In this document: one piece after another, positions 15,401-27,047 of the stretch
Position numbering within the stretch: the stretch's first letter is position 1
Layout: each line of letters starts with the position of its first letter
Origin: a virus
Taxonomy: Duplodnaviria; Heunggongvirae; Uroviricota; Caudoviricetes
Direction: 5' to 3' (one strand)
IMG/VR virus record: IMGVR_UViG_2541047699_000005
Length of the DNA stretch: 28,826 nucleotides
Program-made: the position numbers and the translations under genes
The notes under the pieces: generated by a model
What the model saw: the letters and a program-made list of their open reading frames with translations, nothing else
Databases searched by the model: none
What the model was told of the DNA's origin: nothing

Positions 15401-15513
15401 GTTTTCTCCTCATGGACACCACCAGTGCATAAAGCAGCAACTGAAGTGGTTTACTGAATTTGGCCACCTGAACAGAGGTGATATGCTCACCTCAGAACAA
15501 CACAGGTGCCATA

Positions 15514-16661
<1,148 letters not shown>

Positions 16662-16800
16662 CTCGGTGGCCAGTTTTTGTTGACCACTTCAAACAAACAG
16701 CCCGACAGCATCAGAGACGCTGGCAGACCTGCATACAGATAAACGCCAGCAGTGAGCAAACCGAAACCGATCAGCCCGGTCATATCAGTAATAAGCTGTT

Positions 16801-19187: not shown

Positions 19188-19538
19188 TCAATTGATGCGT
19201 TCGCGCGCTGTTTTTGCTTTATGACAGGGCCAGCACAGACTCTGCAGGTTACTGTCTGCATCTGTGCCACCATGAGCTTTCGGAATGATGTGGTCCACAG
19301 TTCTGGCTTCAACGGCTCTCCCATTGCGCAGGCAGTTCTGACACAGATGATTATCACGCTTCAGTATGCGCGCACGTATGGCATCCCATTTCGAGCCATA
19401 GCCACGCTGGTGGCGGCTCAGTCCGCGTTGATGCTGTACCCATCCTTCGCCACGATGTTTATCGCAGTAACCAGAACTGTCTGTGGTTGTACCTGCACAT
19501 CCACGCTTACGGCAGGCGCGTGGGATTAGTGCTGGCAT
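19188..19538 (-). CDS. HNH endonuclease (packaging-associated)
   Basis: 116-aa ORF with Cys-rich zinc-binding pairs and an HNH core (DHIIPKAHGGTDADSNLQSLCWPCH), adjacent to TerS as in HK97-like cos phages. Confidence 0.85.
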   Translation of the reverse strand: MPALIPRACRKRGCAGTTTDSSGYCDKHRGEGWVQHQRGLSRHQRGYGSKWDAIRARILKRDNHLCQNCLRNGRAVEARTVDHIIPKAHGGTDADSNLQSLCWPCHKAKTARERIN

Positions 19539-19676
19539 GTTTCGCCCTTATATAAATCAAAGGTGACCTGCATTGAGTATCTCCATGGAATAGATTTGCT
19601 GCTGATATGAGACAGATCAATAGACTTCATGAGCCAACGGGTGTAGATATTACTTTTTACTTCAGAGGGTTAACTC

Positions 19677-20216
19677 ATGGATATTAAAGATAAAATCAAT
19701 ACCATTTTGTTATGTGACATTGCCATCCACCTAGGTATCGAAACTGATATTGATCCACAGCTTGTTAAATATGCTGTGTCATCTGGTAATGATTGGGTTA
19801 TCAAGGCCGAATATTCACATTTGGATGTTGACGAACCAAGTAAAGAAGATCGTGATTTTGTTACTGCTGTCTTGAATATGTATCGCGGACTTTCCAATGC
19901 TTTCAGGAAACTTAGTGATGACGAGCAAAAAGAATTAGTCCGTGACCATCATCTAAAAATACATGATGGGGCAATTCAGCTCCCAGGTTTCGACGGTAAT
20001 AATGAATGCGATTACTTCAGTATCATTGAGGCATATCAGAAAATTGATCGCTTCCCCGAACAGAAACAGCCCATTGCCAATACTCATTCACGTACAGAAC
20101 ATCTCTATAACGCAATGCTTGATGAGTTTAAGAAAATTGACGCTGTAAATCGAAGCTGGGATTTATCGAAGGAAGAACTGGCATCCATTCTTTCCACAGC
20201 TCCACGCAGTTTCTAA
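19677..20216 (+). CDS. Moron gene on the opposite strand: 179-aa protein, possibly YfbU/UPF0304-like
   Basis: Only well-supported plus-strand gene in the phage backbone. AT-rich; GAGGG SD 7 nt before the ATG; followed by a hairpin terminator. Several blocks (MY..L, GFD, TH, LS..E..I) line up with E. coli YfbU as I recall it. Confidence 0.6.
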   Translation: MDIKDKINTILLCDIAIHLGIETDIDPQLVKYAVSSGNDWVIKAEYSHLDVDEPSKEDRDFVTAVLNMYRGLSNAFRKLSDDEQKELVRDHHLKIHDGAIQLPGFDGNNECDYFSIIEAYQKIDRFPEQKQPIANTHSRTEHLYNAMLDEFKKIDAVNRSWDLSKEELASILSTAPRSF

Positions 20217-20221
20217 GTGCT

Positions 20222-20488
20222 TTAGGCGGGTTTCCAACCCGCCTTATTATGCTCGTATATAGAGAAGGAAGCACCCAAATTAACCAGCGCGGATTTCTTT
20301 TCCTCAATACGGCTGTTAAGTTCAGCAACTGCATGCGGGCGTATGGCCTCAAGAAAAGCACTATATTGATAGGCAGACTGGATTGTCACACCAAGCCCTG
20401 CACCACTTTCCAGTATACCTTTCTGTCGCTGTAGCTCTTTCATCTCGTTATAGATGTAATGTGCGTTACTTAGGTTTTCTACGTTCAC
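20222..20488 (-). CDS. Hypothetical 88-aa protein (uncertain coding)
   Basis: ORF-track ORF with a GTG start and a weak, closely spaced SD; a possible -10 (GATAAT) lies upstream. It is convergent with the 179-aa gene. Confidence 0.3.
   Translation of the reverse strand: MNVENLSNAHYIYNEMKELQRQKGILESGAGLGVTIQSAYQYSAFLEAIRPHAVAELNSRIEEKKSALVNLGASFSIYEHNKAGWKPA
20225..20255. terminator. Palindromic hairpin with T-rich tail between convergent genes
   Basis: ggcgggtt-tcc-aacccgcc (20225-20243) followed by ttattat, starting 9 nt after the TAA of the 179-aa gene and overlapping the last codons of the minus-strand 88-aa ORF. Confidence 0.5.
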
Positions 20489-25626: not shown

Positions 25627-25657
25627 CAGGAAAAAACAAAACCCGCCGAAGCGGGTT
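25627..25657 (-). terminator. Intrinsic terminator downstream of the hok-family gene
   Basis: Minus RNA aacccgc-UUCG-gcggguu followed by UUGUUUUUU; a second stable hairpin (ggcgaggga-gaaa-ucccucgcc, about 25693-25714) lies between it and the hok stop. Confidence 0.5.
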
Positions 25658-25725
25658 AAGTGCGGGTGCGTTGAGGATGCCTGACACATCAGAGGCGGCG
25701 AGGGATTTCTCCCTCGCCAAGTCTC

Positions 25726-25881
25726 TTACTCCTCAGGTTCGTAGACTGTGAAGACAGCGACCTCCGTCTGGCCGGTTCGGATTCGTACCTCGCAGAGGTC
25801 TTTCCTCGTTACCAGTGCCGTCACTATGACGGTTAAACAGATGACGATCAGGGCGATTAACATCGCCTTTTGCTGCTTCAT
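25726..25881 (-). CDS. hok: Hok/Gef-family type I toxin (51 aa)
   Basis: MKQQKAMLIALIVICLTVIVTALVTRKDLCEVRIRTGQTEVAVFTVYEPEE, with an AAGGAG SD. It is nearly identical to the HokD/RelF sequence as I recall it. The ORF-track frame extends 19 codons upstream in frame to an ATG at 25938. Confidence 0.85.
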   Translation of the reverse strand: MKQQKAMLIALIVICLTVIVTALVTRKDLCEVRIRTGQTEVAVFTVYEPEE

Positions 25882-26134
25882 AGCCTGCTTCTCCTTGCCT
25901 TTCGGCACGTAAGAGGCTAACCTAGATTTGCCGTTCATAGATTGAGCCTCAGATTAATGTTAAGCGTCTTGCAGGACGCGTAATGTTAACTGGGGCTTTT
26001 CTCTATCTGCCTTTGGTGTTCATGCCTGAGGCAGATAGCCTCAAGCACCCGCAGCAATTCTACTTAAGTTAGATAAGCTTTTCTATGGTATTCTCTCAGC
26101 GTCCCGTAAATACAGTCTCGGCTCATCATTTTTA

Positions 26135-26392
26135 TCACAGGTGCGAGGAAAATATATAGCGCCCTCCATCAAGCATAACGAAATACATTTTCCATTCATC
26201 GCCATTCCTCAATTTAATACGAAGACTTTCCCCGCAAGTGTATTTATTAAACAACTGTTCCGATGTGCTAGTAAGAGGTATTTTTACCGTTATTACAACT
26301 ACTGCCCCACCATTTAACTCTCGAAGTTCAGCATCCGCATCCACAAAAGATGAATAAATGTTATGATCTGGGTAATCAACAATTAACTGCAT
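26135..26392 (-). CDS. Hypothetical 85-aa protein in an AT-rich island
   Basis: ATG at 26392 preceded by AAGGAG at 5-nt spacing (the ORF track starts 2 codons earlier at GTG). Strongly AT-rich compared with flanking phage genes; no recognisable motif. Confidence 0.6.
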   Translation of the reverse strand: MQLIVDYPDHNIYSSFVDADAELRELNGGAVVVITVKIPLTSTSEQLFNKYTCGESLRIKLRNGDEWKMYFVMLDGGRYIFSSHL

Positions 26393-26531
26393 ATTCACTC
26401 CTTAAATATAGCAACTAAAACAAACAACGATTTAACAGTAGGAATTGTTTTTATAACATATGAACGGTGCAAGATCTATCCAGATGAAGCCTCCCCTCAC
26501 ACCCCCCGTCTCATTACATGCATTTACTATC

Positions 26532-27047
26532 TCACCGTAAAACATCCTCCACGCTTATCAGTCCGTTTCGCTTCAGGTAGTCCATCGCCTTCTCCGGTAA
26601 TTTGCAGTCCGGCTTGGCTTTTTTCAGTTGGCTGACCAGTCGTTTAACCCACATTGTTAATTCGCTAACCTGATTGCCGGAAGCTGGTGGGTTGTCGGCT
26701 TTACCCAGAATGACAGCACTGCAGGCCTCTTTGAGTACCCAATCAACAGCATCTTTCCATGCTCCTGTTTCGACTGGTGGATTCTCACGCTTTACCTGTT
26801 CATAAAAGCGCACGGCTTTAACCAGTCCTTCTGATGTCAGTGGCACAGGCGGGGCAGTGAATAACGCCTGAATTTCATAGCTCGGCCTGTCGTTGCAATC
26901 CTCTTTTGTCGGTACATATTTCCAGTCACCAACCCACGGCTCCCCCTGTGAGTCCGTAATGCCTTTTTTCACGTAGCGATATCGCCATGCAACTGGTTTT
27001 GCCTGCCCTGCCGTTTCATGTCCTTCCTGATAATTAATCTCGCTCAT
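26532..27047 (-). CDS. Hypothetical 171-aa nin-region protein
   Basis: ORF-track ORF; its ATG overlaps the stop of an upstream 58-aa ORF (ATGA). Confidence 0.6.
   Translation of the reverse strand: MSEINYQEGHETAGQAKPVAWRYRYVKKGITDSQGEPWVGDWKYVPTKEDCNDRPSYEIQALFTAPPVPLTSEGLVKAVRFYEQVKRENPPVETGAWKDAVDWVLKEACSAVILGKADNPPASGNQVSELTMWVKRLVSQLKKAKPDCKLPEKAMDYLKRNGLISVEDVLR

Follow-up and report, generated by a model that had tools for sequence, protein, structure and literature searches.

An AT-rich exchangeable cassette upstream of hok in a lambdoid prophage carries a single gene of a previously unclassified prophage protein family

The morons and the nin/ea accessory genes of lambdoid phages are small, non-essential genes inserted between the conserved genes of related prophages, and are characterized by low GC content, presence/absence polymorphism, sharp boundaries and alternative cassettes in one slot. 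The classical (Hendrix-type) morons are autonomous transcription units, with a promoter and a terminator of their own, and are expressed in the lysogen. In the Qin prophage of E. coli K-12, relB-relE, a two-gene type II toxin-antitoxin, fills the slot that directly precedes hokD and is bounded by the small early genes and the rem/DUF968/Q block, and the hok/sok system itself, as known for R1, is a type I RNA-antitoxin module for which no protein partner is required. The closest described protein structure is that of YebV (DUF1480, PF07351; PDB 8VVA, Klebsiella pneumoniae KPN_02352), a monomer of unknown function whose six strands form a split barrel, with a small helix placed between strands 3 and 4 (PMC11809132). 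The locus described here shares the above properties of the lambdoid morons and nin/ea genes, the slot of relBE and, by prediction, the fold of YebV; of the transcription signals that mark the classical morons, crude scans detected neither promoter nor terminator for its gene.

The stretch of DNA analysed (28,826 nucleotides, IMG/VR record IMGVR_UViG_2541047699_000005; hereafter the window) is a lambdoid, HK97-like prophage, nearly complete, whose phage genes are read from the minus strand; its identity to a prophage in E. coli M1/5 is 99.96%. Compared with the latter, it carries a 1250-bp insertion at 15442-16691 with two plus-strand ORFs, of 112 aa and 272 aa, for an IS3-family transposase, located between the terminase and portal genes within a 53-aa ORF of the M1/5 annotation, and this copy of the prophage may thus be defective. 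A second AT-rich island (19500-20250, minimum GC 0.377) holds, on the plus strand and against the direction of the phage genes, a 179-aa gene flanked by the lysis genes and an HNH endonuclease/terminase; the M1/5 annotation describes its product as a YfbU family protein. About 4 kb past the right end of the window, the M1/5 genome carries a RelE/ParE-RelB pair (L023:1-366) beside the immunity (HTH repressor) region, and therefore a relBE-type module exists in this type of prophage, at a position unlike that in Qin. The features of the hok-proximal region are as follows.

26532..27047, minus strand: early gene of 171 aa (phrog_660, function unknown), which makes up the unchanging left flank of the slot.
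26068..26531, no strand assigned: AT-rich exchangeable cassette (the island), 464 bp, 38.1% GC, with its edges set by comparison with other genomes.
26393..26531, minus strand: AT-rich spacer of 139 nt between the 171-aa gene and the ORF.
26398..26403, minus strand: Shine-Dalgarno sequence AAGGAG, 5 nt before the ATG, as read from the sequence.
26135..26392, minus strand: gene for the 85-aa protein WP_001176099.1 (85 aa plus stop; 9.7 kDa, pI 5.2).
26057..26085, minus strand: predicted hok promoter TAGAAA, 17 nt, TAGAAT, with the -35 hexamer (26085-26080) within the island and the -10 hexamer (26062-26057) within the shared hok block.
25876..26050, minus strand: hok mRNA leader and sok target region, a full-length match to Rfam RF01794 (111.7 bits against a gathering score of 59; E 3e-26).
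25726..25938, minus strand: mok (70 aa), which contains hok (51 aa, 25726-25881) in frame; HOK_GEF 6.4e-22, phrog_251 MokW-like.
25640..25657, minus strand: intrinsic terminator that closes the hok transcription unit, from a terminator scan.

The GC content of the island is 0.381 (0.384 for the ORF and 0.374 for the upstream intergenic region) as against 0.517 for the whole window and 0.49-0.58 for the flanking 300-bp windows, and throughout the window just 0.5% of the 464-bp segments are as low in GC or lower, in good agreement with the AT-rich island described in the initial annotation. On the hok side, similarity to other hok loci extends as far as 26067 or 26074, and on the other side homology of the upstream 171-aa gene resumes at 26532 in genomes carrying a different insert; the edges by genome comparison, 26068/26075 to 26531, are thus slightly wider than the 26100-26530 given before.

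Only one substantial ORF is held by the island. A GTG-extended form of 87 aa (26135..26398) appears in the ORF list, but the start region on the minus strand reads AAGGAG (26403-26398), TGAAT (26397-26393) and ATG (26392-26390), so that the near-perfect Shine-Dalgarno sequence with 5-nt spacing noticed earlier is confirmed from the letters. The lack of a recognisable motif was equally upheld, since nothing above threshold was found in Pfam, PHROGs, NCBIfam or PADLOC for this ORF or for any of the 23 family members described below; weak matches to DUF5348, Phage_depo_C and PilZ-like domains, all below threshold, were rejected. The RefSeq label of the product is 'hypothetical protein', a literature search for WP_001176099 gave no result, and the homologue in the 'phage Rac' fragment MN652886 is annotated merely as hypothetical protein HP5. 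The protein is of the soluble type, and is probably cytoplasmic because it is mildly acidic and has no hydrophobic segment.

For expression signals, a consensus scan of the coding strand of the 139-nt spacer found no convincing sigma-70 promoter and no terminator, and folding gave no stable RNA structure (z-score -0.05); the promoter scan is a crude consensus match, which a weak or non-sigma-70 promoter in the AT-rich spacer could escape. Neither a promoter nor a terminator belonging to the 85-aa gene was detected by such scans and folding in the window and three homologous loci. On the downstream side, 50 nt separate the ORF stop from the predicted -35 hexamer of hok, 196 nt separate it from the start codon of mok (25938) and 253 nt from that of hok (25881). 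Neither a terminator nor a significant hairpin was found between the ORF stop and the hok promoter, and the sole terminator-like site from the ORF to the downstream genes is the one that closes the hok unit. The segment from the 3' end of the ORF to the 5' end of hok gave a fold z-score of -2.4 through an 8-bp pairing, with no covariation in three sequences.

As proposed in the initial annotation, the locus was compared across related prophages, and the same flanks were found with swapped contents: the island, a 365-bp cassette or relBE. The island is carried by 42 of the 5426 complete E. coli genomes, in every case in a chromosomal prophage, and is the rare allele of a variable slot. Between the same flanks, the 171-aa phrog_660 gene and the hok block, which are identical or near-identical, four loci (L007-L010) carry an unrelated 365-bp insert (L007:1936-2300, equivalent to window 26068-26531) of 36-39% GC, present in 1570 of the 5426 genomes and thus the common alternative allele. 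RefSeq has no annotation there, and we observed in this cassette a conserved 59-aa hydrophobic ORF, MKNALQFLFVAFWLF..., on the hok strand (GRAVY 1.2), which has no Pfam or PHROGs match and whose product probably forms two membrane helices. In K-12 Qin, relB-relE occupy the equivalent slot next to hokD, in line with the initial annotation; there the hok homology stops at window position 25895, 14 nt before hok, and therefore mok and sok have been lost, whereas the regulatory region of hok is intact in the window. Among related prophages, alternative cassettes were found but never an empty slot. Both marks of a moron, insertion between genes adjacent in related phages and deviant base composition, are present. 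These alignments identify a recombination slot immediately before the hok promoter of Qin/Rac-type prophages, where AT-rich single-gene cassettes are swapped. In all the loci examined, the 85-aa gene follows the replication and small early genes and precedes the DUF968/DUF1367-RusA/YbcO-Q block. A toxin-antitoxin of the RelBE type was rejected for the island, because it holds a single gene without RelE, ParE or RelB match in Pfam or NCBIfam and the predicted split barrel is not the alpha/beta fold of RelE.

Close relatives of the window protein were found in E. coli only, but a search of all 1.84 billion representative proteins detected a distant 85-aa relative, and the searches started from it led to three clades. 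Exhaustive HMMER and word-index searches returned only relatives of this 85-aa type, from E. coli, E. albertii, E. marmotae, Klebsiella and Raoultella. Clade A is the type of the window and includes variants whose amino-acid identity is 93% and about 72-74%; clade B, from E. coli, E. albertii and E. marmotae, is about 35-38% identical to clade A; and clade C is that of Klebsiella and Raoultella. Identity between clades is 33-42% with the length kept, all intact members being 84-87 aa. Comparison of the window with L006, a variant of 85% DNA identity, gave a dN/dS of 0.27 at a dS of 0.53; dS is saturated between clades, and between the 100% and 94% variants dN/dS is about 1, on 9 substitutions only. 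A strong Shine-Dalgarno sequence (AAGGAG, TAGGAG or AAGGGG) stands upstream of members in all the clades, and every member examined combined such a sequence with a GC content of 37-39%, regardless of host GC. Together with the kept length, the substitution pattern marks the ORF as a genuine gene subject to purifying selection. The exact window protein is encoded on at least 999 contigs, and frameshifted copies were also found (P0010, P0011, P0014, P0015, P0017, P0043 and P0048). Unannotated, truncated remnants resembling clade B (the 3' half, about 88% DNA identity over 180 bp) occur in prophage variable regions of about 409 E. coli genomes, for example at L015:10876-10980, L014:12189-12293 and L036:3501-3683. 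Because of the frameshifted copies and these remnants, the gene is considered to be often dispensable.

In a total of 50,697 deposited phage genomes the family is absent except for the 8-kb 'phage Rac' fragment from E. coli 442/2, and IMG/VR prophage predictions do contain members; the species-representative genomes scanned gave no relative, which fits sporadic carriage. By these surveys the family is undescribed and restricted to prophages, and what is new here is a previously unclassified prophage protein family, absent from Pfam, PHROGs, NCBIfam and PADLOC. The proposal of a recent horizontal acquisition in the initial annotation stands in part: the island is a compositionally distinct cassette exchanged horizontally, as indicated by its carriage and that of its alternative, but 'recent' does not follow from low GC, since the family stays at 37-39% GC in all clades even where synonymous sites are saturated, including the Klebsiella hosts of about 57% GC. 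Low GC is accordingly a stable trait of the 85-aa family and not as a mark of recent arrival.

Structure prediction, another check put forward at the outset, was performed with AlphaFold2 using the 23-sequence family alignment, and gave a confident model (pLDDT 92.3, pTM 0.81) of a six-stranded split beta-barrel with one short helix (strands 2-6, 14-26 and 29-39; helix 42-48; strands 56-61, 66-75 and 78-82); a model from a shallow 6-sequence alignment (pLDDT 54) was discarded. This predicted fold agrees well with that of YebV, six antiparallel strands forming a split barrel that is capped by the helix between strands 3 and 4, and both families consist of single domains of about 80 aa, are confined to Enterobacterales and have no known function. 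Visual alignment with YebV also brings together an 'IP' where strand 3 ends and the pattern 'NG[DE]-x4-Y-x4-D-x5-aromatic' over strands 4-6, a likeness noted only post hoc. In contrast, YebV is a highly conserved chromosomal gene product (rsmF-yebV-yebW in K-12), whereas the 85-aa family is sporadic, prophage-borne, AT-rich and divergent (to 33% identity), and lacks the Cys32/Cys39 pair of YebV. None of the 23 members matched PF07351 at E<=1, with E. coli YebV as control at 1.3e-42 (144 bits); hhalign gave a probability of 0.2% for the two families; and the HMM score ranked 393/5001 against shuffles, which is not significant. Sequence homology to YebV was therefore rejected as a claim: as regards DUF1480, the predicted fold is there, and a Pfam match and the conserved chromosomal locus are missing, so that the model supports a shared fold only. 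A profile search of PDB sequences found nothing (best E 0.08, eL22), and Foldseek gave no match at E<=0.001 in PDB and BFVD.

A PilZ domain was also rejected. The N-terminal RxxxR and the [DN]xSxxG motifs are both missing, the sole resemblance being R58-x3-R62 within strand 4, and the conserved columns of the family include neither motif; the PilZ domains of c-di-GMP receptors are longer (about 110 aa), and no family-invariant residue matches the c-di-GMP site. As a separate observation, in prophages of the Klebsiella type the 85-aa gene is followed directly by a homologue of the theta subunit of DNA polymerase III (HolE-like; L011:538-795, L020:7336-7500, L022:7348-7500 and L035:14577-18135), and on the K-12 chromosome yebV is located about 3 kb from holE and adjoins the lambda-phosphatase-like pphA. 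This parallel may be a coincidence or a hint of the prophage descent of the yebV region.

Next to the island, the hok block (25640-26067, 428 bp) is present in 4750 of the 5426 complete E. coli genomes, and its Hok in the window is annotated as hokD (WP_000813256.1). With Hok, Mok and a full-length sok/hok-leader match, the module is by sequence complete and self-contained. The 5' end of hok mRNA is placed at about 26050 by the RF01794 match, with which the position of the predicted promoter agrees. Homology among hok loci ends between the -10 and -35 hexamers, and therefore the -35 hexamer comes from the island; both hexamers are kept in the 94% and 85% island variants. An isrK-like Rfam match at 25636-25717 (minus strand; 28 bits against a gathering score of 50, sub-threshold) overlaps the hok 3' end and the terminator, and is probably mere terminator similarity. 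In one IMG/VR prophage (L043:3512-4073), two tandem Hok-coding sequences lie downstream of an identical island.

The initial annotation had raised the possibility that the 85-aa protein is a partner or regulator of the Hok toxin, and the distribution of the two genes speaks against it. Within clade A, hok is located at a fixed distance downstream in every locus examined (10/10 contexts and 11/11 IMG/VR loci, plus L001 and L006), and this arrangement is still kept in variants of 85% nucleotide identity (dS about 0.5), a persistence longer than simple chance linkage might suggest. In clades B and C, the genes occupy an equivalent position, at the end of the replication/small-gene block and before variable cargo and the Q region, and no Hok-coding sequence was found within 3-7 kb of them. 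Since islands of 100% identity are found beside Hok alleles that are 96, 98 and 100% identical, recombination separates the island from hok. No neighbouring gene was found to be shared across the clades. Nor does the ORF, which ends at 26135, upstream of the promoter (26085-26057), belong to the hok transcription unit, and co-occurrence is far from obligate (4750 genomes with the hok block, 42 with the island). By this distribution the family is independent of hok, and the 85-aa protein appears to work independently of the neighbouring toxin.

In its firmest part, the analysis identifies a cassette that is independent and exchangeable and whose single gene encodes a small folded protein. For its role, the reading that we favour, as somewhat better than an even chance, is a stand-alone accessory cassette whose soluble split-barrel product is expressed from the early transcript and whose juxtaposition with hok involves no shared function. 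The cassette lies within the early rightward region of lambdoid prophages of the Qin/Rac type (replication genes to Q), with moron-like composition and presence/absence pattern. Most likely, the 85-aa gene would be transcribed upon prophage induction by read-through of a pR-type, antiterminated early transcript, because it lies on the same strand as the early genes with no promoter or terminator detected for itself; at the Klebsiella locus L018, where a strong terminator precedes the gene, read-through would need antitermination or a local promoter. Translation from the strong Shine-Dalgarno sequence would be efficient, and the protein, being a small domain without catalytic or nucleotide-/ligand-binding motif, most likely exerts its effect by binding to a macromolecule of the host or the phage, as a putative non-essential modulator of the kind common in nin/ea regions. 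The adjacency to hok would then reflect short-range linkage in a recombination hotspot. A distinctly improbable extension is that the protein is a phage-borne branch of the YebV-type fold, acting as a small inhibitor or decoy of a host factor such as a defence, stress-response or replication component, and that in clade A read-through might also couple early transcription to Hok production.

The main rival, unlikely in our judgement, is a true moron whose product would serve the lysogen in defence or superinfection exclusion, or would act early as an anti-defence factor. It would account for the AT-richness, the strong Shine-Dalgarno sequence and the sporadic distribution, and it gains from the neighbourhood: the clade B gene borders variable defence-like cargo (LprI, GmrSD_N, HNH, GIY-YIG and DUF2971), and the slot holds the relBE toxin-antitoxin in K-12 and adjoins hok. 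Yet PADLOC-DB 2.0 gave no match at E<=1, no promoter or terminator for the gene was detected, and the protein is without enzymatic, membrane or nucleotide-binding motif; frequent pseudogenisation argues against strong selection, and we know of no defence effector that resembles a single 85-aa barrel. Coupling to hok is still less probable; here the protein would modulate Hok, Mok or Sok, or read-through from the ORF would give 5'-extended hok mRNAs that escape fold-back and Sok control, tying Hok to early transcription. The clade A linkage and the shared promoter region keep this idea weakly alive, in that the clade A genes always lie 50 nt upstream of the hok -35 hexamer without an intervening terminator, that the island provides this hexamer within a region kept in the 85% variant, and that K-12 has hokD as the third gene of its relBEF operon. 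All this is outweighed by the hok-less clades B and C, by the abundance of hok cassettes relative to islands, by the linkage of different hok alleles to identical islands, and by an RNA antitoxin that does without a protein partner. That the ORF is a decaying or non-functional remnant, in an island of junk AT-rich DNA hitch-hiking with hok, is hardly credible: the many frameshifted or truncated copies, and the dN/dS of about 1 among the closest variants on just 9 substitutions, would fit such decay, but 85 aa are kept in three clades at 33-42% identity, dN/dS falls to 0.27 at larger divergence, the strong Shine-Dalgarno sequence is retained, the high-confidence fold is driven by the family alignment, and the exact protein recurs on at least 999 contigs.

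For hok/sok biology, the outcome is negative: the module is canonical and in need of no protein partner, and the analogy with relBE is positional only. The gene of the island is an ordinary but uncharacterised prophage accessory gene, and the newly defined family to which it belongs is accompanied by a confident predicted model of a YebV-like split barrel. Identification of the target of the protein could hint at the role of YebV-like barrels, and the reading as inhibitor or decoy, if true, would provide the first functional handle on YebV, a highly conserved protein of enterobacteria.
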